Shown in pieces: positions 2-13,128 of a DNA stretch of 64,000 nucleotides. The position numbers and the translations under genes are program-made. This stretch comes from Alphaproteobacteria bacterium (GTDB taxonomy: Bacteria; Pseudomonadota; Alphaproteobacteria; JBFXJJ01): assembly GCA_050175015.1 (NCBI GenBank), contig JBFXJJ010000001.1, forward strand, positions 128,001 to 192,000, in the 5' to 3' direction. Every line of letters starts with the position of its first letter. Within the stretch, counting starts at the first letter, position 1. The notes under the pieces were generated by a model. It was not told where the DNA came from. It did not search any database and saw only the letters and a list, made by a program, of their open reading frames with translations.

Positions 2-220
2 CTGGAACATTTGAATGTTATGGATAATCCCGAATGCACGCCAGAACAAGCACTAAAGGCCTGGGGAAAAGTATTTAACAATACGGATTTCTTTGATGCC
101 CGAATCCAAGAACGGAAAAGTGCCAACAACGCAATAGGTAGCATGGCAATTATTAAAGAAGCTGAACGGTTGAACCTTAACTCGCCTGTTAATAAACAGG
201 GGAACAATGAATATGCCTGA
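2..220 (+). CDS. C-terminal fragment of a CBASS CD-NTase (cyclic oligonucleotide synthase), truncated by window start
   Basis: Frame is open from base 2. ALKAWGKVFNNTDFF and a flexible tail ending PVNKQGNNEYA resemble type II CD-NTase C-termini. Stop overlaps the start of Cap2. Catalytic core is outside the window. Confidence 0.7.
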   Translation: MEHLNVMDNPECTPEQALKAWGKVFNNTDFFDARIQERKSANNAIGSMAIIKEAERLNLNSPVNKQGNNEYA

Positions 221-2051
221 AGATGACTTGTTTTGGATCGAATTGCACAGGAAAGCAGCCAATGAAATAGAAGAATACTTTATGGCGGCGGGCTGGCATT
301 TTATCCCTCTGAAAGATGAAGAGATAAATAAAAGCTATTCTGGGCGAAAAATTTCCTTCGGTTGGAGTTTGTTGTTTTCTTTTCCTTGTGGAACGAAAAA
401 ACGCCTGCATTTGCTTATTGATAAAAACTTTCCTTATTCCCTTCCCCGGGTAGCATTAGAAGACAAAAGCTTTTATATGAAATGGCCTCATGTTGAAGAA
501 GATGGCATTCTTTGTCTTGGATCAAAAAATAGCAACGCTATAGATAATAGCAATATTGCATGCATGGTTTTCGGTGCGTTTAGATCAGCTTATGAACTAA
601 TAGAAGCTTGTCTTGACGAAAGCTGTTTTTCTGACTTTGACACAGAATTTAATTCATATTGGTGCAGAGAAGAGCACGACTCAGAGGCCTTTTTATCCCT
701 ATTGGATGATTCCAGAAAAACGCGAAAAGTTATGTTCGCCAACGTAAAAGATAGAGTTCTTGTTTGCGACGATAAAAAACATGGACAACGCTGGATAAAC
801 AACTTTTTTACCTTCAAACCAGAAGAGAAAGTTACCTTTAAAAAAGGAGTTTTTCTATGGCTATCTAAACCGTTAAGACCACCATATCCCAAGTCCGGAA
901 AAGAGGTGCTTTCTTTAATAAAAGAGTGTGCGGAACAAAGCGATGCTAAAATTATAGGAGAAACTTTAAAAGATATTCCCAATACGTTTCCAATTTTTTT
1001 TGGCTTTGAAACAAAAAACGGCCCTGCATTAGGCTGTTTTTATACCGAGAGACCAAAAACAGAAAAGCTTCCTAATGGGAAAGAGATTAATCCAATAACA
1101 AACGGATTTCGTCCTGGCAAAATTCCTTTTAAAGTCATAACCACACGATATTTATCAAAGGCTGATATAAAACCAAGAAAAGTAGATAGAGTTGATCATG
1201 CTTGGTTGCATGGCAGGGCTGTAGATGAGACTTCTAATTCTATTAGAAACAAATCTGTTGCTATAATAGGGCTAGGGGCTGTTGGAAGTTTTGTCGCGGC
1301 AATACTTGTCAAAGCTGGTGTAGGAAACATAGTTCTAATTGACGACGACAAACTGTCATGGGTGAACATAGGCCGTCATGTCTTGGGTGCGCAACATGTT
1401 GGCAAATACAAGAGCCGTGCCCTATCCGAAGATTTAAGAAGAAACCATCCAAATCTCAATGTGATTTATGATGATCCATCAATTATTCAGAGTGTGTTGC
1501 TCGAAAGAATAGATGTCTTGCAAAAGTGCGATATAATAATAGACCTTACAGCCGATTGGATAGCAAAAAGTATATTGAATGAGTTTTGGCATAGAGGGAT
1601 GCTAAGCGCCCCCCTTGTTTTTGGCTGGACAGAACGCTTTGGGGTAGCAGGCCATGCTATTGCACTAATAAACAAAAATCATGGCTGTTATCAATGTGGA
1701 TGCAATTTTGATGGCGGTTTATTAAATCCCTTAACAAACTGGCCAGAGGATATGCCTGTTTTTCAAGAACCTGCCTGCGGAACTGTTTTTCAGCCTTATG
1801 GGCCTACGGAACAGGGGTTTTCTAATTCACTGATCAGCAATCTTATTATTGATGTTCTAATGAAAAACATAGAGCAGTCCGTTCATAGAGTTTGGGTTGG
1901 CCCAAAGAAAAAAATTAACCATTATCGTGGGTGTATTTCTGATGATTGGAAGGAAATAACCAAACATATAGAAGAGCATGGTGGTATTGTTTGCAGGAAT
2001 TGGGAAAGACGAAAAGATTGTCCAGTCTGCGGAAAAGGGTACACGCGATGA
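207..2051 (+). CDS. cap2: CBASS Cap2, E2-E1 (ThiF) ubiquitin-transferase-like fusion
   Basis: E2 motif WPHVEEDGILCL; ThiF nucleotide-binding IIGLGAVGS and NIGRH; E1 catalytic Cys region QEPACGTVFQPYG; Zn ligands CYQC and CPVC; followed by a JAB gene. Confidence 0.9.
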   Translation: MNMPEDDLFWIELHRKAANEIEEYFMAAGWHFIPLKDEEINKSYSGRKISFGWSLLFSFPCGTKKRLHLLIDKNFPYSLPRVALEDKSFYMKWPHVEEDGILCLGSKNSNAIDNSNIACMVFGAFRSAYELIEACLDESCFSDFDTEFNSYWCREEHDSEAFLSLLDDSRKTRKVMFANVKDRVLVCDDKKHGQRWINNFFTFKPEEKVTFKKGVFLWLSKPLRPPYPKSGKEVLSLIKECAEQSDAKIIGETLKDIPNTFPIFFGFETKNGPALGCFYTERPKTEKLPNGKEINPITNGFRPGKIPFKVITTRYLSKADIKPRKVDRVDHAWLHGRAVDETSNSIRNKSVAIIGLGAVGSFVAAILVKAGVGNIVLIDDDKLSWVNIGRHVLGAQHVGKYKSRALSEDLRRNHPNLNVIYDDPSIIQSVLLERIDVLQKCDIIIDLTADWIAKSILNEFWHRGMLSAPLVFGWTERFGVAGHAIALINKNHGCYQCGCNFDGGLLNPLTNWPEDMPVFQEPACGTVFQPYGPTEQGFSNSLISNLIIDVLMKNIEQSVHRVWVGPKKKINHYRGCISDDWKEITKHIEEHGGIVCRNWERRKDCPVCGKGYTR

Positions 2052-2515
2052 TGATTTTTTGTTCTGATCAGTTGAGGCAAAAGGTTGTCTTTACAAACCG
2101 TGTAGTCAAACTGTTCAAAAAACACCAACAAACAAATGCAAAAAGCAAGGAAGCAGGGGGACAGCTTTTTGCAAGCTTTGAAAAAGATTCTGTAATCATA
2201 ATGGATGCTTCAGAGCCAAATAGACAAGATATAAGGGGTAAATATTTTTTCCATCCAAACAGAGATAGGGAAAGACAAGACATCAACATTTTTTTTAAGA
2301 AAGGCCTTCATTATGTAGGTGATTGGCACACTCATTTTGAACCAGCTCCTAATCCATCGGATAAAGACAAAGAAACTATTCGGGATTGCTTTATAAAATC
2401 AGACCATAAATTAGATAATTTTATTTTGGTTGTAGTTGGAACAGCCTGTTTCCCTGAAGGATTATCTGTCTCTATTCATAACGACAAAACATATTTGTTT
2501 TTACACAATGTTTAA
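2048..2515 (+). CDS. cap3: CBASS Cap3, JAB/JAMM isopeptidase
   Basis: EAGGQL and YVGDWHTHFEPAPNPSDKD JAMM motif. ATG at 2048 overlaps the Cap2 stop (ATGA), so it is preferred over the ORF-track start at 1946. Confidence 0.9.
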   Translation: MMIFCSDQLRQKVVFTNRVVKLFKKHQQTNAKSKEAGGQLFASFEKDSVIIMDASEPNRQDIRGKYFFHPNRDRERQDINIFFKKGLHYVGDWHTHFEPAPNPSDKDKETIRDCFIKSDHKLDNFILVVVGTACFPEGLSVSIHNDKTYLFLHNV

Positions 2516-3723: not shown

Positions 3724-4038
3724 ATGAAGCTTTTAACTAAAGAGATTGAAAAACGCTTACCGCTTAGGCAAGAAAATCCAAGCGAGAAAATAGGAGAATT
3801 AGTTGCCCATGTTAAATTCTTTACACCGTGGGCTGGCTGGACGTGGTTTGCTTGCGAATACAATAGAGATGAGAGGACATTTTTCGGCTGGGTGATAGGT
3901 CTTGAGCAAGAAGCAGGCTATTTTAGTTTAGATGAATTAGAAGAACTTCAGGGACCATTTGGCTTAAAAGTAGAGCGAGATTTGTATTTTGAGCCAACCA
4001 AACTTAAAGATATTCCTGAAGTAAAGCTTATTTATTAG
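3724..4038 (+). CDS. DUF2958 family protein
   Basis: VKFFTPWAGWTWF, FFGWVIGLEQEAGYFSLDEL, GLKVERDLYF; RBS AAGGAG. Confidence 0.85.
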   Translation: MKLLTKEIEKRLPLRQENPSEKIGELVAHVKFFTPWAGWTWFACEYNRDERTFFGWVIGLEQEAGYFSLDELEELQGPFGLKVERDLYFEPTKLKDIPEVKLIY

Positions 4039-4175: not shown

Positions 4176-5345
4176 ATGGCAAAAATTAAGCTTAATGCCA
4201 ACGTAGTTGCAAAAATTAAACCAACAGGAGAAAGAAATGATAAGGAACGTTATTATTGTTCTGAAAACATAGGCCTTATGCTTGAAGTAAGAGCAACAGG
4301 AGTAAAAACATTTTATGTCAATTATCAATTACCTGATGGAACAAAACGTCAATTCAAGATAGGTAGATATCCTGAAATTTCTTTTGAGAATGCCAAGAAA
4401 AAAACTTTGGAAATTAGGGGCTTAGCTATGACAGGAGTTGACCCCACAAATTCAAGACAAAAGTCAAGGGGCACTCCATTGTTTTGTGAATTTGCGGATA
4501 CATATCTTAAACATGTTAAGGATCAAAAATCATCTTGGAAAGACGATGAATGTATTATTAGAATTTGGCTTAATCCTAATTTTGGCAGAAAGAAACTAGA
4601 CCAGATTGATACTGTTGATATTAGCCGTCTTCACAATACTATGAAACAAAGTCGTTCATCTGCTACCGCAAATAGAACGTTATCTATAATCAAGCATATG
4701 TTTAATGTTGCCATTAGCTGGGGAGAGATTAACAAAAATCCAGCAAAGGGCATTAAAAAATTTAGAGAAAACCAAAAAGAAAGATATTTGTCTGTTGAAG
4801 AAATCAAAAGACTCATGGCTGTTCTTAATGAGGAAAAAAATCACTCCATTGCATCTCTTGTTATGTTGCTATTATTTACAGGTGCCAGAAAGTCTGAAGC
4901 CCTGAAAATGAAATGGTCTGATGTTGATTTTAAAAATGCAATCTGGACAGTTCCCCAAGAGAACTCAAAATCAAGAAAAGTGAGACATATTCCTTTATCC
5001 AATATTGCGATTAGGATTTTGCAAAACATTGAGCGGGTAGAGGATTCTCCTTATGTTTTTGTTGGTAGATATGACATTTACAAACCAATGAACAGTCCTA
5101 AAAAAACTTGGTATAAGATTAGAGAACTAGCAGGATTACCAGATGTTAGGCTTCATGATTTAAGACATAGTTATGCTTCTTTGCTGGTCTCTAATGGACG
5201 TTCCTTATATGAGGTTCAAAAGATATTAGGACACAGCTCTCCTAACATGACTCAAAGATACAGTCATTTTAGCAAGGATACTCTAATAACAGCGGTTAAT
5301 TCTGTTGGCAATTCGTTAAACGACATTTTAGTTATAGAAGCCTGA
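4176..5345 (+). CDS. int: Tyrosine recombinase/integrase with N-terminal arm-DNA-binding domain
   Basis: TGARKSE, RLHDLRH, LGH and TQRY catalytic residues intact; N-terminal GVKTFYVNY...IGRYPEIS arm-binding pattern. Confidence 0.95.
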   Translation: MAKIKLNANVVAKIKPTGERNDKERYYCSENIGLMLEVRATGVKTFYVNYQLPDGTKRQFKIGRYPEISFENAKKKTLEIRGLAMTGVDPTNSRQKSRGTPLFCEFADTYLKHVKDQKSSWKDDECIIRIWLNPNFGRKKLDQIDTVDISRLHNTMKQSRSSATANRTLSIIKHMFNVAISWGEINKNPAKGIKKFRENQKERYLSVEEIKRLMAVLNEEKNHSIASLVMLLLFTGARKSEALKMKWSDVDFKNAIWTVPQENSKSRKVRHIPLSNIAIRILQNIERVEDSPYVFVGRYDIYKPMNSPKKTWYKIRELAGLPDVRLHDLRHSYASLLVSNGRSLYEVQKILGHSSPNMTQRYSHFSKDTLITAVNSVGNSLNDILVIEA

Positions 5346-5461: not shown

Positions 5462-5687
5462 ATGGGAATAACGATAAAGAGAGAGACTCAACCAGAAAAA
5501 CTTTTAACACCTAAAGAAGCAGGAGAGTATCTGCAAGTGGCTCCAGCTACTTTAGAAAAATGGCGTATGAAAAAAAATTGGTCCTAAATATGCTAGGTTT
5601 GCCAATAGAACAGTTAGGTATAGCAAAGTTGATTTAGAAAACTTTGTTTTTGAAAATAAAATTATGCCAACCGCCCAAAAAAATTAA
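5462..5687 (+). pseudogene. Excisionase-like HTH (HTH_17/AlpA-type) gene frameshifted in an A8 tract
   Basis: ATG 5462 gives MGITIKRETQPEKLLTPKEAGEYLQVAPATLEKWRMKK and then stops early. Removing one A from 5570-5577 continues IGPKYARFANRTVRYSKVDLENFV...TAA 5687. Absent from the ORF track. Confidence 0.8.
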
Positions 5688-5891
5688 GGCTCTTATTTTT
5701 TTTATTTTCGGATTTTTAATGGTTTTAGCAATAATAAACGCTACCCTAAACATATTGCCCTTATCCAAAACGGATAAGGGCTTTGTGTTATTCTTTTTAC
5801 TTTTAGCTAAATCATTAAAAACACATAGAAATCTACAGTTTTCCACATTATGACCTGTCAGAATTATTGTCTTTCTAAACACTAATTTCTG

Positions 5892-5926
5892 TAACGTCCA
5901 ATTTTGTCGCACATAGGTGTCATCTT
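5892..5926 (+). promoter_or_regulatory. Putative DriD box plus -10 element upstream of the dnaQ-like gene
   Basis: TAACGTC-N7-GTCGCAC; TGTCGC-N10-CATCTT. Confidence 0.6.
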
Positions 5927-5961
5927 TATAAACAACAATTAGTTTATAAGGAGGTGTTGCT

Positions 5962-6858
5962 ATGCGAGAGATAGTTTTAGATGTTGAAACAACTGGTTTG
6001 TCTGCAAAAAATGGGAATAGAATTGTTGAGATAGCAGGAATAGAGGTTATAAATTATGTTCCAACAGGAAAATATTTTCAGGCTTATGTGAATCCAGAAA
6101 GAGAAAGCGATGCTGACGCTTTTAAAGTTCATAATTTAACTACAGAGTTTTTATCACAGAAGCCTTTGTTTAAAGAAATTGCTTCTGATTTTTTAGAGTT
6201 TATCAAAGACAGTCCGTTAGTTATTCATAATGCCCCTTTTGATATGAGTTTTATTCAAAACGAGCTTAAAATCGCAGGCTTGCCAATTCTTCAAAATAAA
6301 ATAGTTGATACATTAGAAATTGCTAGGAAGGCGTTTCCTGGAATTTCTAATTCATTAGATAGCCTATGCAAAAGGTTTAACATTGATATTTCCGAAAGAG
6401 AAATTCATGCCGCTCTTTTAGATGTTGAGTTGTTGGCAAAAGTCTATTTAGAGCTGATGGGCGGCTCTCAAACCAAAATGACTTTTGCTGTTAATGAGGA
6501 ATGTAATGTAAAGTCAGAAAAGAAATTTTATCCCCCAAGACCTCATTTTCCAAGTGAAGATGAGTTAGATGCTCATAAAAAAATGTTTAGCGATAATTAT
6601 ATGTGGTGCTGGAAAAATGACTTAGAAAAAATGCCCTTAAAAGATTTTATGTTAAAACATAATCTTGAAAGATTCTTTCCAGCCTTTTTTAATGAAGAAT
6701 ATAAACTTTTTACTGATTTAAGTATCAAGGCTCTAGGTGATACAGGAAACGCATCAGAGGCAAGATTATTTTGCTTGCTTGAAGCATTAATTAAAAAACA
6801 TCGAATTGAAAATTTAAAAAACATACTTGATAAAATCAGAAACAAACAACCTATTTAA
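5962..6858 (+). CDS. dnaQ: DNA polymerase III epsilon (DEDDh 3'-5' exonuclease) with extra C-terminal region
   Basis: LDVETTG, HNAPFD, HAALLD; PPRPHFPSEDELDAH tail, then about 80 extra residues; RBS AAGGAGG. Confidence 0.85.
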   Translation: MREIVLDVETTGLSAKNGNRIVEIAGIEVINYVPTGKYFQAYVNPERESDADAFKVHNLTTEFLSQKPLFKEIASDFLEFIKDSPLVIHNAPFDMSFIQNELKIAGLPILQNKIVDTLEIARKAFPGISNSLDSLCKRFNIDISEREIHAALLDVELLAKVYLELMGGSQTKMTFAVNEECNVKSEKKFYPPRPHFPSEDELDAHKKMFSDNYMWCWKNDLEKMPLKDFMLKHNLERFFPAFFNEEYKLFTDLSIKALGDTGNASEARLFCLLEALIKKHRIENLKNILDKIRNKQPI

Positions 6859-6877
6859 GATAGAAACACAAACAACA

Positions 6878-6912
6878 AAACGTCCAAATTTATCGTGTAT
6901 ATATGACATTTA
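6878..6912 (+). promoter_or_regulatory. Degenerate copy of the 5892 motif upstream of the UDG-fold gene
   Basis: AAACGTC-CAAATTT-ATCGTGTATATATGACAT aligns ungapped with TAACGTC-CAATTTT-GTCGCACATAGGTGTCAT. Confidence 0.5.
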
Positions 6913-6988
6913 TTTGTTGTAAAAACTTATTTTAACTTGCCTAATAAAAACTAACTTAAAGTTTAAAAACAAATTGGAGGAGAAAATT

Positions 6989-7702
6989 ATGCAAAACCAG
7001 AAATTAGAAGATATTCAAGCCAACATTTATGACTTTCTTGATAAAGCAAATAAGGTTCTACTGAAAGAAGACTCTCTTTTTTATGGCGGACAATATATAA
7101 CAGGTTGCCTTGAAAATCCTAAAATTCTTTTTATTGGTATTAATCCAGGTTTTGCAGCAAACGATGAATGGGGAGACCGTCCACATACTTTTAATCGGAA
7201 AACTTTTTCTCAAAAAGATTGTAAATATATTGAAGAAGCAAAACGAAAAAACTCTTTGGCTCTTAAAGTTGTTGAATATCTTCTAAATAACGAAAATGAT
7301 TTACTAAAAAAATGTGCTGAAACAAGTTTTAAATCTTTCTTTGCTACATCTAATGAAAACGGTATTGATGGCTCATTAAAAAATCTATCCTCCTCTGGAT
7401 TGCAAGTAGAACATCATAAAATTATGAACGATGCAATCAAAACAATTATAGAAGAAATTTCTCCTGAAAATATTGTATTTATTGGAAAAACAGTCTTTGA
7501 CAATTTTGTTTGTACCTTTGGTTGTAAAAAAACAGAAATAAAAGAAATGACTTCACTAAGCGGAAAAACAAAACGTATTTTTTATCAAAAAACGTTTTTT
7601 AACGGAATACCAACTCACGGGGTTTTACATTTATCTGGAGCTCAACCCTCTACTAAAATTTTGGACGAGCTAAAAAATATTTTTAAATCTGTAATTAGCT
7701 AA
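6989..7702 (+). CDS. Uracil-DNA-glycosylase-like fold protein
   Basis: ILFIGINPG (motif A-like), PENIVFIGK, VLHLSG (motif B-like); ATG 6989 follows GGAGG. Confidence 0.65.
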   Translation: MQNQKLEDIQANIYDFLDKANKVLLKEDSLFYGGQYITGCLENPKILFIGINPGFAANDEWGDRPHTFNRKTFSQKDCKYIEEAKRKNSLALKVVEYLLNNENDLLKKCAETSFKSFFATSNENGIDGSLKNLSSSGLQVEHHKIMNDAIKTIIEEISPENIVFIGKTVFDNFVCTFGCKKTEIKEMTSLSGKTKRIFYQKTFFNGIPTHGVLHLSGAQPSTKILDELKNIFKSVIS

Positions 7703-7719
7703 ACTTTTTTAAACGCCAT

Positions 7720-7752
7720 AAAAGAGCCTGCTTTAAAACAGGTTCTTTTTTT
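7720..7752. terminator. Bidirectional terminator between convergent genes
   Basis: AAAAGAGCCTG-loop-CAGGTTCTTTTTTT. Confidence 0.7.
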
Positions 7753-8113
7753 ATGTTCTATAATGGCTATCGGTTTTGATGATATAGTTTTGTCTTAAAA
7801 GACCAAATTCGTTGATAATTTTTTGCATGATAGATTTTTTTAAAAGTTTTCTATCCGCATAGATATAAAACCGTTTTTCTGGCACATGATAAGAAACACG
7901 ACCTCTTGGCACTTCATCATATTCAAAATCATGAAAAACAGAAGAAAATCCTGTTTTAAGCTCCATCTCTTCCCAAAAATCCACATGCCCTTTATCGTGA
8001 ATTAAAAAAACACCATAAGAAACAGCATTATCAAGCAAAGTCTTATCACAAATAAGCTCCAAAGACTTAAACCAGAAAATGCCAACATAAATATTTTTAT
8101 TTGTATCTGTCAT
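7751..8113 (-). CDS. Conserved-looking hypothetical protein
   Basis: 120 aa with YVGIFW, EYDEVPRGRV, FYIYAD and DSHY motifs; function not recognised. Confidence 0.7.
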   Translation of the reverse strand: MTDTNKNIYVGIFWFKSLELICDKTLLDNAVSYGVFLIHDKGHVDFWEEMELKTGFSSVFHDFEYDEVPRGRVSYHVPEKRFYIYADRKLLKKSIMQKIINEFGLLRQNYIIKTDSHYRT

Positions 8114-8119
8114 ATATTA

Positions 8120-8154
8120 ATAATAACAGCCAATAACGTCACAAATGGACATGT
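8120..8154 (-). promoter_or_regulatory. Putative DriD box in the divergent region, with -10 placed for a leaderless transcript
   Basis: Plus strand TAACGTC-N7-GACATGT. Minus strand reads TGACGT-N10-TATTAT-N6-ATG(8113). Confidence 0.55.
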
Positions 8155-8234
8155 TAGAAAACATAATCTAAAAACATTTTAATGCTTTCATAATTGTCAT
8201 AATATTTAAGTTTATCTTTTAAAGGAGTTTTCTT

Positions 8235-9458
8235 ATGCTGAAAAAAAAGTTTTATGCCTTTGTAGATAACGTTGATATATTAAGTAAAAGCTCTAAAGGA
8301 AGAGTTTATATAGAATTCGACTGTATTAACGCAGAGGCTTATAAGATTGGTAATTTTAATTCCAAGCCAGATGCTTATGCCGTTTTAAGAATTGTTACAA
8401 CCAAAAAAAGACTACTTGATATAACATCAGAAAAAACTCTTCCTAAAACCTCTAGTTGGTGGGAAATAGGCGTTTCTTCTAATAAAAAGTGGTTGCCGAC
8501 TTGGTTTTCAAAATTGCAAGAAGATGGTTTTAGCTTTCCAATTAAATGTTATACGCATGGTTTAAAGCGAATTAAAGATGATGAAGATTACCCTAAAAGA
8601 AAAAGTTTAAGTGCGGCGGCGACAAAAAAGGTTATGTTAAGCGATGTTACTCAAGATTTTTGTATTGATAATTTAAGCAGAGAAAAATGTAATGCCTGCA
8701 AAATTTTATCAAAAATTAAACCGATTGACAAAATTATTATATATGATGTTGGACAAGCTAATTTTATTGCCCTTTTAAATAAAGATAATCAAAAAGAGCT
8801 TTATGTTGATGTTGGTTTCCCTCTCCCATTTAATTATAATACGATAAACAAAGCTATTACTGCAAAAGTTTCAAAATTACCTCAAGCAACGATTTTATTA
8901 ACTCATTGGGATTATGACCATATGAGTGCTGTTTTTAAAAATAACAATTTAAGAGAAAGTAACTGGGTTGTTCCTAATCAAAAAATAGGACCTAGCAAAT
9001 TTAAACTAGCAAAAGAGCTAGCAGATAGAGGAAAGCTCCACATATGGGACAATAGTAACAGTAACTGCCGAAAATATTTTAATTTTGGAGACATAAAACT
9101 AGCAACTGGAGATGATATAAATAATTCTGGTTTAATTCTAAATGTAAGGTTTAAGGATTTTTATAATGTACTAATGTCTGGAGATACAGATTATAGTAAT
9201 TGTCCTTTTAATCTCACTTTTGATGCAATTGTTGCTACTCATCATGGAGGAAGTTTTAATGGAAGATGTCCTTCGCCTAAAGGAGGATTAGGAATAAAAC
9301 ATAACTTTATAGATAAGGTTTATTTATCTTACGGCAAGGGTAATCGTTACAAACACCCTTCAAATGCAGCAACCAATCAATATATACGCAACGGTTGGAA
9401 AATAGAAAGAACAGCGAAAGATGTTTCTAAAAAAAGAGGTGATATTTCGATATCTTAA
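8235..9458 (+). CDS. MBL-fold (ComEC/Rec2-like) metallohydrolase with unknown N-terminal domain
   Basis: DVGQAN, THWDYDH, NNSG, SGD, HHGG and GNRYKHP metal-binding motifs. Confidence 0.85.
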   Translation: MLKKKFYAFVDNVDILSKSSKGRVYIEFDCINAEAYKIGNFNSKPDAYAVLRIVTTKKRLLDITSEKTLPKTSSWWEIGVSSNKKWLPTWFSKLQEDGFSFPIKCYTHGLKRIKDDEDYPKRKSLSAAATKKVMLSDVTQDFCIDNLSREKCNACKILSKIKPIDKIIIYDVGQANFIALLNKDNQKELYVDVGFPLPFNYNTINKAITAKVSKLPQATILLTHWDYDHMSAVFKNNNLRESNWVVPNQKIGPSKFKLAKELADRGKLHIWDNSNSNCRKYFNFGDIKLATGDDINNSGLILNVRFKDFYNVLMSGDTDYSNCPFNLTFDAIVATHHGGSFNGRCPSPKGGLGIKHNFIDKVYLSYGKGNRYKHPSNAATNQYIRNGWKIERTAKDVSKKRGDISIS

Positions 9459-9474
9459 TTGATATAAATGTTTT

Positions 9475-9496
9475 GCTCGCACATATTTGTTATAAT
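9475..9496 (+). promoter_or_regulatory. Half-site plus perfect -10 upstream of the WYL regulator
   Basis: GCTCGC-ACATATTTGT-TATAAT; same spacing and shared TCGCACATA as the dnaQ promoter. Confidence 0.5.
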
Positions 9497-9537
9497 AATG
9501 TTTTAATTTTAAAGATATTTTTTAAAAGAGGCTCTAT

Positions 9538-10485
9538 ATGCGGTATGAAAAGTCTGAAAACATTTCAAGATTAGCAATAAAAATGCAGTCTAATGCGGAA
9601 GGTCTTTCATTGGCAGATATTCAAAATGAATTTGGGGTTAGCAGACGAACCGCAGAACGTATGCGAGATGCCGTTTTACGGCTATATCCACAATACGAAG
9701 AAATTATAGATGGCAGAAGTAAACGCTGGAGAATTCCCTATGGCAGAGTAAATAATCCTGCCCTAACGGTTGATGAATTATCATCAATTGCCAAAGCGAT
9801 AAAACTAGCAGAGGAAATTGGACGAGAAGATATTTTTAAACATCTAAAATCAGCCCAGGATAAAATCAAAGCAACCATATCGCCTGATGCAATCAGAAAA
9901 GCAGAGCCAGACATTGAAGCAATTATCGAGGCTGAAGGTTATGCTATGCGTCCTGAGCCAAAAGAAAAAATCGATACTCATATTTTGGAAACATTGGTTT
10001 ATGCTATAAAAGCCTGTCGTAAAGTTAAAGTTGAATATCTTGGAGCAAATTCAGGTAAAATAAGCTTTCAAGTAATCTATCCTTATGGATTTACCTATGG
10101 AAGTCGAAAACGTTTGGTTCTTTATAATGAATATGCCGAAGATTTTTATACTTACCGTTTAGCTAACATAAAAAAAATCAAACTGCTTGATGAATGTTTT
10201 AAAAAAGACGCCAATTTTTCTTTAAAAAAATATGTTGAACAGTCTTTCGGAGCCTTTCAAGAACCTCCTCAAAAAGTTGTTTGGAGAGCCTCTCCCGAAA
10301 TTGCAGATGATGCCAAAAATTGGCTGTTTCACCCAACACAAACCATAGAAGAACAAGCTGACGGCTCTTTACTAATCACCTTTATCGCAGGTGGTTTTTT
10401 AGAAATGGCTTGGCATCTCTATACTTGGGACGGCAAAATGGAAGTCTTGGAACCAAAAGTTTTAAGAGATATGATTGATTTTTAA
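9538..10485 (+). CDS. driD: wHTH-WYL-WCX transcriptional regulator, DriD-like
   Basis: MRYEK, GVSRRTAERMRDAV, YRLANI, SFG, FHPTQ and AGGFLEMAWHLYTW match Caulobacter DriD as recalled from memory. Confidence 0.85.
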   Translation: MRYEKSENISRLAIKMQSNAEGLSLADIQNEFGVSRRTAERMRDAVLRLYPQYEEIIDGRSKRWRIPYGRVNNPALTVDELSSIAKAIKLAEEIGREDIFKHLKSAQDKIKATISPDAIRKAEPDIEAIIEAEGYAMRPEPKEKIDTHILETLVYAIKACRKVKVEYLGANSGKISFQVIYPYGFTYGSRKRLVLYNEYAEDFYTYRLANIKKIKLLDECFKKDANFSLKKYVEQSFGAFQEPPQKVVWRASPEIADDAKNWLFHPTQTIEEQADGSLLITFIAGGFLEMAWHLYTWDGKMEVLEPKVLRDMIDF

Positions 10486-10603: not shown

Positions 10604-10635
10604 CCCCTCACGATTGACTGTGAGGGGAGTTTTTT
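10604..10635 (+). terminator. Terminator between the WYL gene and the ykvA-like gene
   Basis: CCCCTCAC-N8-GTGAGGGG then AG and a T run. Confidence 0.65.
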
Positions 10636-11008
10636 AATCTTTTTCTAACCATTTTTTATATTCTTTCAGTTCATCGCTCACCATTTTTAGGCAGACTGAT
10701 ATTACTGTAATATCATCTGTATAGCCAAAAATAGGGATAAAATCTGGTATCACATCAATAGGCATTAATAAGTAAATTAAGGCAAAAACTATTACACTTA
10801 AATTATTCCAATTAATGTTTTTATAAGTTCCGTCATAGTAATCTTTTGCTAGGTTAAACATTATTTTAACATCACTAGAAACAGAAGATAATATGCCATT
10901 TAGCATAGAAAACAATCGTTCTTCCTTCGCTATTAATTTATGTAAATCTTTTTTATTAACATTATTAGATTGCTTTGTTACAAGCTTTTTAGTTTTTTCA
11001 AAATTCAT
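10634..11008 (-). CDS. YkvA/DUF1232 family membrane protein
   Basis: ALIYLLMPIDVIPDFIPIFGYTDD signature. Confidence 0.9.
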   Translation of the reverse strand: MNFEKTKKLVTKQSNNVNKKDLHKLIAKEERLFSMLNGILSSVSSDVKIMFNLAKDYYDGTYKNINWNNLSVIVFALIYLLMPIDVIPDFIPIFGYTDDITVISVCLKMVSDELKEYKKWLEKD

Positions 11009-11248: not shown

Positions 11249-12175
11249 ATGTCAGGAGCATACGCTCATATAGCAGCGGTACAAACACTAACATCAGGAA
11301 ACAACCTTGATGAAATAACTATGCCAAAATTATTAAAAAAAGCATTGAGTACGAACCCATCATTTTGCATTATGGGAGCTGTAAGTCCTGATTATCCTTA
11401 TCTTGATTTAACTAATCCAAGTTCTAGTAAATGGGCAGACGAAATGCATAATGGGGGAATGCAAAATATTATAAAATCTGGCATCAAATTAATAAAATGC
11501 CTTGAAAATAATGAAGAACTGGAAAAATGTTTGGCTTGGTTCTTTGGGTTTTTAGCGCATGTTGGAGTGGATATGACCATTCACCCTATAGTTGAAGGCA
11601 TTGCAGGTATTTATTCTTTGAGTAAAGAAAACCAGAGAAAACATCGCATTTGCGAAATGAACCAAGATGTTCATATTTGGCAAAAACTAAATTTGGGAAC
11701 AATCGGCAGATGTGAAATTATAGATAATATTAGATACTGCGATGATGATAAAAAAAATCTTTATGAACCAGTTAGATTGTTTTGGGATAGTATTTTAAGC
11801 TCAGCATATCCAGAGTTATACTCAACCAATAAACCAGATATAAACAAGTGGCACAAAAGCTTCTCTTATATAGTTGACATAGTAGAAGAAAGTCACGAAT
11901 GGCCTAGATTTGCACGACATGTTTCTGTTGATGCGGGATTGTCATATCCCTTGCCAAGTGAGGTTGACGATCAATATATTCAGAAATTAAAAACTCCTGA
12001 TGGTAAAATGTTAAGTTATGATGAAATTTTTAAAAAGGCTTTATCTAACGTAAATGGAATTTGGGTTAACATAGCGGAAGCTATAGAAAACGAAAAAAGT
12101 AGTTATATATCATCTTTATTAAGTTGGAATTTAGATAGAGGTTTAACAAGTTCAGGAGGATATTTATTTTGGTAG
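11249..12175 (+). CDS. Zinc-dependent phospholipase C / S1-P1 fold family protein
   Basis: MSGAYAH, GAVSPDYPY, WADEMH, GFLAHVGVDMTIHP, HRICEMNQD; ATG 11249 follows GGAG. Confidence 0.8.
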   Translation: MSGAYAHIAAVQTLTSGNNLDEITMPKLLKKALSTNPSFCIMGAVSPDYPYLDLTNPSSSKWADEMHNGGMQNIIKSGIKLIKCLENNEELEKCLAWFFGFLAHVGVDMTIHPIVEGIAGIYSLSKENQRKHRICEMNQDVHIWQKLNLGTIGRCEIIDNIRYCDDDKKNLYEPVRLFWDSILSSAYPELYSTNKPDINKWHKSFSYIVDIVEESHEWPRFARHVSVDAGLSYPLPSEVDDQYIQKLKTPDGKMLSYDEIFKKALSNVNGIWVNIAEAIENEKSSYISSLLSWNLDRGLTSSGGYLFW

Positions 12176-13014: not shown

Positions 13015-13050
13015 AAAAAGCCTTGAAACCGTTGAGTTTCAAGGCTTTTT
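13015..13050 (-). terminator. Hairpin terminator directly downstream of tRNA-Lys
   Basis: AAAAAGCCTTGAAAC-cgttga-GTTTCAAGGCTTTTT perfect inverted repeat. Confidence 0.85.
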
Positions 13051-13052
13051 AT

Positions 13053-13128
<76 letters not shown>

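Follow-up and report, generated by a model that had tools for sequence, protein, structure and literature searches.

A candidate island-local DriD-type regulon of three genes in an alphaproteobacterial genome

Introduction

Does a WYL-domain regulator carried by a genomic island switch on the genes around it, and if so, which of them and for what purpose? This question is raised by a five-gene block at positions 5892–10485 of a 64,000-nucleotide stretch of DNA (hereafter the window) from Alphaproteobacteria bacterium (GenBank assembly GCA_050175015.1, contig JBFXJJ010000001.1, positions 128,001–192,000). The block encodes a paralogue of the DNA polymerase III epsilon subunit DnaQ, a protein with a uracil-DNA glycosylase (UDG) fold, a 120-residue protein (orf120), a metallo-β-lactamase (MBL)-fold hydrolase and a homologue of DriD, an activator of Caulobacter crescentus that responds to single-stranded DNA (ssDNA). 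An initial annotation had described the block as a mobile, activator-driven module in which every transcription unit carries a DriD-like motif.

The explanation that fits the whole best, and that we hold to be probable, is an island-local DriD-type regulon whose products form an inducible kit against foreign DNA. Its regulatory part is firmer: DriD-type activation of promoters 1 and 3, and weakly of promoter 2, by one of two DriD paralogues of the host is very probable. The regulon would comprise three genes and not five, because box and −10 element are not suitably arranged at the MBL gene and driD. Judged by their promoters, the dnaQ paralogue and orf120 are clearly predicted members, and the UDG-fold gene may be one, via a weak box or read-through. 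The MBL gene, driD, the Dsr2 gene and the cyclic oligonucleotide-based anti-phage signalling system (CBASS) of the island, and the SOS genes of the host would lie outside the regulon. What stands of the proposed module is an element integrated at a tRNA-Lys gene with DriD boxes before the dnaQ paralogue, orf120 and, weakly, the UDG-fold gene; the MBL gene and driD drop out.

Results

Three predicted DriD-type promoters in the block

Earlier work defined the DriD site as CGXC-N7-GXCG around an AT-rich spacer; G2, C4, G12 and C14 are its most important bases, and C1 and G15 less so (PMC10853764). DriD occupies the −35 position at a single fixed distance from the −10 element (PMC13004042). In two Caulobacter promoters printed there, we counted by eye 11 bp between the core and CAnnnT, the choice of −10 hexamer being ours.

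All four strings reported for the block are present: TAACGTC-N7-GTCGCAC at 5892, AAACGTC-N7-ATCGTGT at 6878, TAACGTC-N7-GACATGT at 8134 and GCTCGC at 9475. Promoter 1 (5892–5926, plus strand), before the dnaQ paralogue, consists of the core CGTC-N7-GTCG (5895–5909), an 11-bp gap and the TG-extended −10 element CATCTT (5921–5926). Promoter 3 (8120–8154, minus strand) points toward orf120, with the core TGTC-N7-GACG (8151–8137), again 11 bp, and the TG-extended −10 element TATTAT (8125–8120), 6 nt before the ATG. The orf120 mRNA is probably leaderless, and the apparently mis-called N-terminal extensions of two orf120 homologues (P0002 and P0003) would, going by their translation, fit the layout of promoter 3. 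Promoter 2 (6878–6912, plus strand), before the UDG-fold gene, is weak or decaying. Its core CGTC-N7-ATCG is followed after 11 bp by TG-CATTTA, and its variant class is rare among foreign loci. A hairpin scan found none in the gap between the dnaQ paralogue and the UDG-fold gene, and a weak one inside dnaQ only.

The initial annotation had also placed a −10-like hexamer at constant distance behind three of the motifs. This was right for CATCTT (5921) and for TATAAT (9491), the latter behind site 4. After site 3, TATTAT is present on the minus strand only, and promoter 3 therefore serves the 120-aa gene and not the MBL gene.

We built a profile from 29 foreign sites, taken from promoters beside DriD homologues of other genomes, and scored it over 5,049,158 positions of the host genome. 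Site 1 ranked first, a box on contig C44 second, site 3 (minus strand) fifth, site 2 11th and site 4 6082nd; sites 1, 3 and 2 thus stand out from the genome background. Three of the top 11 positions lie in the 4.6-kb block (binomial P ~1e-6, calculated post hoc), and high scorers elsewhere fell within coding sequence (5/5 inspected). The perfect core CGNC-N7-GNCG with TG-YAnnnT at 11 bp occurs twice genome-wide, at site 1 and beside the DriD-like gene of C44; with at most one mismatch, there are 20 matches, two of them perfect. Our simple gene caller placed a spurious antisense ORF (5634–5912) across site 1, which made the site coding, and the intergenic counts leave it out. In the rest of the 26-kb island, the profile scan found no other site above 2.6 bits, and CBASS, Dsr2 and the integrase are therefore not DriD targets.

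Two other comparisons were set aside. The likeness of site 1 to the didA 20-mer (14/20) was rejected as evidence, since 92 genome positions do equally well. Scanning for ACGAC-N7-GTCGT with one mismatch gave 16 matches and recovered none of the four sites.

The spacing recurs in other genomes. Our first foreign set comprised 40 of 42 DriD-homologue loci, from 33 of 35 matching genomes among 400 sampled genomes of the class. Distal perfect cores with an AT-rich spacer were followed by YAnnnT at a gap of 11 in 31 of 398 cases, compared with 1–14 at other gaps (4 to 18). In a second set of 75 further loci (80 fetched, 5 dropped as duplicates of earlier loci), the −10 element stood at gap 11 after 31 of 489 cores versus a mean of 8.9 at other gaps (P 4e-9, kin counted as independent), and 24 of the 75 loci had a distal site. 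One-mismatch cores away from driD show no gap-11 excess (73/3714). The gap-11 spectrum of the host genome is flat (5/206). Sites of at least 14 bits occurred in 74 of 146 DriD loci; counting the training sites, they number 141, whereas reversed sequence yields 5.

Because of the profile ranks and the spacing spectra, we discount chance as the origin of the motifs. Chance, or repression by the regulator at its boxes in the manner of CapW and BrxR, would be a most improbable account. Repression could appeal to the second WYL gene by the island CBASS operon, which we take to be CapW-like, and to box 3, which overlaps a weak −35 element (9/12) for the MBL gene and could occlude it. However, the promoter scan was itself at background (23 found versus 22.5 expected), the protein falls in with DriD, and the boxes take the place of the −35 element, always equally far from a −10 element, which is the published activator layout.

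Promoters of the MBL gene and driD

A motif had been claimed for every transcription unit, and this did not hold for the last two. Site 4 (9475–9496, plus strand) is at best a relic: the partial right half CTCGCACATA precedes a consensus TG-TATAAT (9491), the left half is missing, and a right-half profile ranks the site 1103rd. Site 4 may be a decayed DriD box, and the region is likely a constitutive driD promoter. Read towards the MBL gene, the profile gives no DriD-type promoter (score −19.4).

Could all five genes nevertheless be activated by DriD, the MBL gene through box 3 read forwards and driD through the half-site? Box 3 is nearly symmetric, with CATAAT 10 bp off on the MBL side, and both bidirectional boxes and box-to-driD promoters occur in homologous loci. 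Moreover, TCGCACATA, a pattern picked post hoc, has five genome occurrences, three of which coincide with sites 1 and 4 and the C44 box. Gap 10, however, is at background on the far side of boxes in homologous loci (5/141, versus 13 at gap 11). Together with the poor rank and missing left half of site 4, and with MBL-family relatives that lie far from any DriD gene or box in 3/3 foreign loci, this makes activation of all five genes improbable.

The island DriD and its paralogue

The last gene of the block (9538–10485, plus strand) encodes a 315-aa protein with winged helix-turn-helix (wHTH), WYL and WCX domains, the latter two above their Pfam cut-offs. It matches DriD with E 1e-53 over residues 1–313, as the initial annotation had recognized. 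Its best PDB sequence matches, among five matched sequences overall, are DriD structures, which place it nearer to DriD than to CapW/BrxR by sequence matching. R37, E40 and R41, which read the bases in Caulobacter DriD (PMC10853764), are retained. R120, K121, P124 and E127 correspond to the Caulobacter residues R121, R122, P125 and E128, which contact RNA polymerase (RNAP; PMC13004042). The published ssDNA pocket comprises Y168, S172, R178, Y192, K202, R204, W206 and Y240 (PMC9186387). In the window protein, Y167, Y206 and F240 are kept, Y192 is replaced by R and R204 by Y; positions S172, R178 and K202 are variable across the DriD family. The driD promoter carries the half-site at 9475 and no full box. 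A full box is reported for the driD promoters of 68/69 homologues (PMC10853764), and our foreign comparison found a perfect core within 160 bp upstream of driD in 12/40 loci.

The host genome has three WYL genes: the island driD, the gene before the CBASS operon and a second DriD-like gene on C44, a contig of 2.8 kb. The C44 protein is 41% identical to the window DriD. It has the canonical pocket residues Y192 and R204 as well as R37, E40 and R41, and its second-ranking box has GTCGCACATA in common with site 1. The boxes might therefore be read chiefly by the C44 paralogue, the sensor of the island copy being altered or dead (constitutive, or responsive to another ligand), and the loss from the window protein of a tyrosine that is Y or F in 27/27 aligned homologues would agree with this. 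We rate it as a minor alternative, however. The island driD ORF is intact, the other three pocket residues are kept, the RNAP-contact residues are better kept than in the C44 protein, and the exchange of Tyr and Arg is reciprocal and could preserve the pocket.

On C44 itself (C44:1412–1481), the perfect box drives a divergent gene for a 362-aa protein without a Pfam or PADLOC family. A second, one-mismatch box (rank 14) faces the regulator.

Products of the block

The dnaQ paralogue (5962–6858, plus strand; 298 aa) scored 246.8 bits against TIGR01406 (cut-off 222.7), in agreement with the first assignment. All DEDDh residues (D7, E9, D94, H149 and D154) are there. It has QTKMTF at 170–175, where the housekeeping copy has REPGFVL, and keeps the HxxxF..W tail; we take these motifs to have a role in binding the clamp and the alpha subunit. 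The two DnaQ proteins are 51% identical, and the housekeeping gene lies 77 kb away beside a coaE-like gene. The ~80 extra C-terminal residues of the paralogue matched no known family.

The second gene (6989–7702, plus strand) encodes a divergent UDG-superfamily protein of 237 aa, in which GINPG and HLSG are invariant in 4/4 aligned sequences. Structure comparison upheld the assignment of this fold: the model (pLDDT 78) matched 4zby in Foldseek (E 1.2e-4) and 1l9g in VIA (Z 10.8, root-mean-square deviation 4.0, 172 aligned residues, 16% identity). Identity to solved repair UDGs is at most 16%, and a word-indexed search found only three homologues at E≤0.001.

The orf120 gene (7751–8113, minus strand) belongs to an unnamed family with 748 representatives at E≤0.001 and the invariant residues H43, G71, D115, H117 and Y118. 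Its model is confident (pLDDT 92.8); the best structural match, to gelsolin/ADF-type domains (Z 4.2), demonstrates neither kinship nor a new fold. Searches gave no Pfam, NCBIfam or PDB-sequence assignment, no phage match and no usable Atlas match. A bidirectional terminator-like hairpin (7720–7749) lies between orf120 and the convergent UDG-fold gene. The neighbouring gene (8235–9458, plus strand; 407 aa) encodes a ComEC-like MBL-fold hydrolase. This call comes from motifs and weak profile matches.

Recurrence of the cargo

An orf120 homologue lies within 1–2.5 kb in 4/146 DriD loci, and the family occurs in just 3/400 class genomes. Three orf120 homologues near DriD (L138, L143 and L145) have their own box and a −10-like hexamer. 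The gene after orf120 in L138 and L143 is DnaQ-like by eye (DxE motif), and Pfam gave nothing for it at E≤1. A match in L064 was dropped because it is antisense to another gene.

We also collected 17 orf120 loci without using DriD, leaving out 4 of 12 plasmid matches and loci L225, L226 and L228–L230. A nearby box of at least 14 bits was found in four (L051, L198, L212 and L222), and L211 has a box 3.5 kb off. A UDG-like gene adjoins the orf120 homologue in 5/17 loci, and an RNase J-like MBL neighbour, recognized by annotation or sequence resemblance, in 3/17. On the Acetobacter plasmid locus L212, DriD, a box (22.8 bits), a UDG-like gene and orf120 follow consecutively. In L182, a UDG-like gene (Pfam E 0.005) follows one box, and DnaB-like and dnaQ-like genes follow another. 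SRAP, Y-family polymerase and xseAB genes also adjoin orf120 homologues. A separate observation concerns the Roseomonas plasmid locus L207, where the orf120 homologue is clustered with SRAP, ADP-ribosylglycohydrolase, phosphatase, UDG-family and REase-ARP genes, an arrangement that recalls the Brig1 neighbourhood.

The commonest cargo of the 146 DriD loci is a tandem AAA ATPase (32 loci), followed by a DUF2779 nuclease (8 loci); ankyrin, DnaB-like, PD-(D/E)XK, ADP-ribosylglycohydrolase and many unannotated proteins are also found. In L047, L054, L056, L061, L065, L086, L114 and others, the gene for the tandem AAA ATPase (670–720 aa) comes first after a DriD box and often immediately precedes driD. 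It shows partial similarity to IetA only, and it is the most promising lead here to a conserved system that has no name yet. In one family, three loci (L075, L077 and L079) have dense clusters of up to 8–9 DriD-box promoters before ankyrin-repeat, DUF2779 and unknown genes.

The island and its host

The block lies inside a 26.3-kb element that has 51-bp repeats at both ends and is integrated at tRNA-Lys(CTT). The right-end attachment (att) repeat (13047–13097) overlaps the tRNA gene (feature 13047–13128, minus strand); its partner, 26.3 kb off, is at C1:114786–114836 of the host genome (G000). A tyrosine integrase is encoded in the island, as are Dsr2, CBASS E1-E2, JAB and patatin genes, the CBASS cyclase having been left out of the scan. 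This confirms the defence island that the initial annotation had proposed.

Upstream of the window (L006:7408–19091) and at window 207–2515 lie a full-length Dsr2 gene, the presumably CapW-like WYL gene, a PDC-S16 gene and a patatin-effector CBASS with E1-E2 and JAB. The integrase gene (4176–5345) is mid-island, ~7.7 kb from the tRNA end, and is followed by a short, apparently split ORF (5501–5700) that is excisionase-like by eye. The element may be composite. A DUF2958 protein gene (3724–4038) stands ahead of the integrase gene; the right arm holds a member of the zinc-dependent phospholipase C family (11249–12175). The island has two DUF1232-like genes (window 10634–11008 and L006:15329–15808, the second assigned by eye), both preceded by a 59-bp repeat of 86% identity. 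A separate repeat pair is located in the right arm (C1:139031–139089 and 140634–140690).

Upstream of the host recA and lexA genes, we found boxes of the GTTC-N7-GTTC type, which we take to be LexA boxes, and no DriD box at either gene. The host genome stands without another member of its order for comparison.

Discussion

How would such a regulon work? In the three-gene regulon that we prefer, driD would be steadily transcribed from its consensus extended −10 element; in Caulobacter, DriD levels are reported to be constant (PMC9186387). A build-up of ssDNA, caused by damage or by phage or plasmid replication, would be bound by the WYL and WCX domains and free the wHTH domain, as shown in Caulobacter. 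The dimer on CGNC-N7-GNCG would then replace the −35 element and recruit RNA polymerase with the housekeeping sigma factor, a step likewise shown in Caulobacter, for which the contact residues and the 11-bp spacing match here. Strong activation would be seen for the dnaQ paralogue and orf120; the UDG-fold gene would be switched on through its weak box or by transcription that continues from promoter 1. Finally, a Brig-like glycosylase could create abasic sites, assisted by orf120 as a small His/Asp/Arg accessory enzyme, and the epsilon paralogue could trim 3′ ends. The presumed target would be foreign DNA with non-canonical bases.

As to purpose, we lean towards an action on foreign modified-base DNA, at slightly less than even chance, over host repair, which seems possible although doubtful. 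Three points favour the foreign-DNA purpose: the block sits among defence genes, the host has a dnaQ gene and an SOS system of its own, and divergent UDG-fold proteins that act against phages are already known. The return of orf120 in other loci, after DriD boxes and next to UDG-fold genes, suggests an inducible base-excision module, which would be likelier to act against phages than to serve repair.

With the same regulation, the cargo might instead be an accessory DNA-repair kit for host or island, providing deamination repair and a second proofreading subunit whose clamp motif is better. The epsilon paralogue does exceed the dnaQ equivalog cut-off with both its motifs kept, SRAP, Y-family polymerase and xseAB genes are found near orf120 homologues, and the Caulobacter DriD regulon includes recA, recJ, dnaG, bapE and didA (PMC9186387). 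However, the host already owns dnaQ and a LexA/RecA system, the remaining island cargo is defence, and a protein so distant from repair UDGs, with three homologues, is unlike a repair family. We consider a repair kit unlikely, although it is the strongest competitor of the foreign-DNA kit.

Several results weigh against an island-local DriD regulon directed at foreign DNA. At site 2, the critical base G12 is replaced by A and the −10 hexamer CATTTA has no final T. The R192/Y204 pocket pair of the window DriD occurs in 0/142 homologues with both positions aligned, so that ssDNA sensing may be altered or lost. Kinship inflates the first foreign set, in which three loci of one family supply 13 of 36 gap-11 sites, and gap 11 is not enriched in 31 viral DriD loci (8/280). 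The exact gene set was not refound among the 146 DriD loci, and the UDG (A1) and MBL (A2) families of the window had no match in them. Twelve of the 17 independently found orf120 loci lack a box of at least 14 bits. Only two of the five UDG-like neighbours were recognized by Pfam UDG (E<1e-3), the other three by motifs seen by eye. Of the foreign cargo proteins scanned, 4/64 had a PADLOC match at E≤1e-8, and Getz et al. saw phage protection with only one of the seven UDG-like integron proteins in their test (10.1101/2025.10.29.685425).

A bolder reading, which we think less likely than not, is an inducible anti-phage module of an undescribed type. In it, an ssDNA-sensing DriD variant with a re-tuned pocket would switch on a new Brig-like glycosylase, orf120 and a replisome-docking epsilon paralogue, and together these products would destroy modified-base phage DNA. 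Here orf120 would be a small enzyme without a clear solved fold, from a family that accompanies UDG-fold genes and DriD boxes in various proteobacteria. On this reading, a DriD box plus −10 element would also be a sequence tag for inducible, mostly unannotated island effectors, the tandem AAA ATPase being one example. In Caulobacter, DriD has been studied as a regulator at the core of the DNA-damage response. Our findings indicate that many alphaproteobacterial DriD homologues instead run small local regulons with interchangeable cargo, and the box is therefore a testable way to unannotated inducible defence or repair genes. The locus names two candidates, the divergent UDG-fold protein and the orf120 family, and provides a natural pocket variant with which to test the ligand choice of WYL proteins.

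Comparison with known systems

CapW and BrxR share the WYL-WCX architecture and the defence-island location with the window DriD. They act as repressors of defence operons, in a clade of their own (PMC12392091). The island's CapW-like gene is distinct from the window driD and lies outside the window.

Anti-phage DNA glycosylases offer the closest parallel to the cargo. Brig1, whose best structural match is the UDG of S. tokodaii (PMC11078745), shares this top structural neighbour with the window UDG-fold protein. The Brig2 study illustrates that mobile elements can encode divergent UDG-fold proteins with anti-phage action (10.1101/2025.10.29.685425), and Brig3-BapA is an anti-phage DNA glycosylase with a partner (10.64898/2026.02.25.707755). 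Like these systems, the block combines a divergent UDG-superfamily fold, a defence island and a nearby partner gene. Searches of the PDB by sequence and by fold with the UDG-fold protein brought up no Brig entry. We rejected an identity of orf120 with BapA, which is a dissimilar two-barrel ASCH protein of more than 250 aa. WYL is unmentioned in the two Brig papers checked for it.

DriD of C. crescentus (PMC9186387, PMC10853764, PMC13004042; PDB 8tp8 and 9pfq) is a full-length homologue of the window regulator with the same base-reading and RNAP-contact residues. The box CGNC-N7-GNCG, its AT-rich spacer and the distance to the −10 element are all the same. The targets differ: the window copy is island-borne and would control its neighbours only, not recA or other core genes, and it has the pocket changes Y192R and R204Y and no proper box at driD. 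The SOS-independent regulon of Caulobacter has boxes at core genes for repair, recA among them, whereas the recA upstream region of this host is without a DriD box. A review, in the excerpt available, treats DriD solely as a damage response (PMC7617703).

DdaA of Moraxellaceae (PMC12392091, PMC13010146), like the window DriD, is a WYL activator with a related box. It activates restriction-modification and CRISPR genes (PMC12392091), and the initial statement that WYL regulators of defence loci are repressors is thereby corrected; WYL activation of defence genes is already published and not new here. DdaA acts under DNA damage and is described as a putative regulator of its own neighbourhood that later assumed control of the core response (PMC12392091), a likeness to the window DriD. 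Unlike the DdaA targets, the named defence systems of the present island have no box. DdaA has replaced SOS and runs a genome-wide regulon, whereas this host keeps its presumed LexA boxes. Searching publications apart from their supplements, we found no description of island-local DriD regulons or of this gene set. The switch is known and this target set is new; because the switch is already known, the value of the locus lies in what the switch controls.

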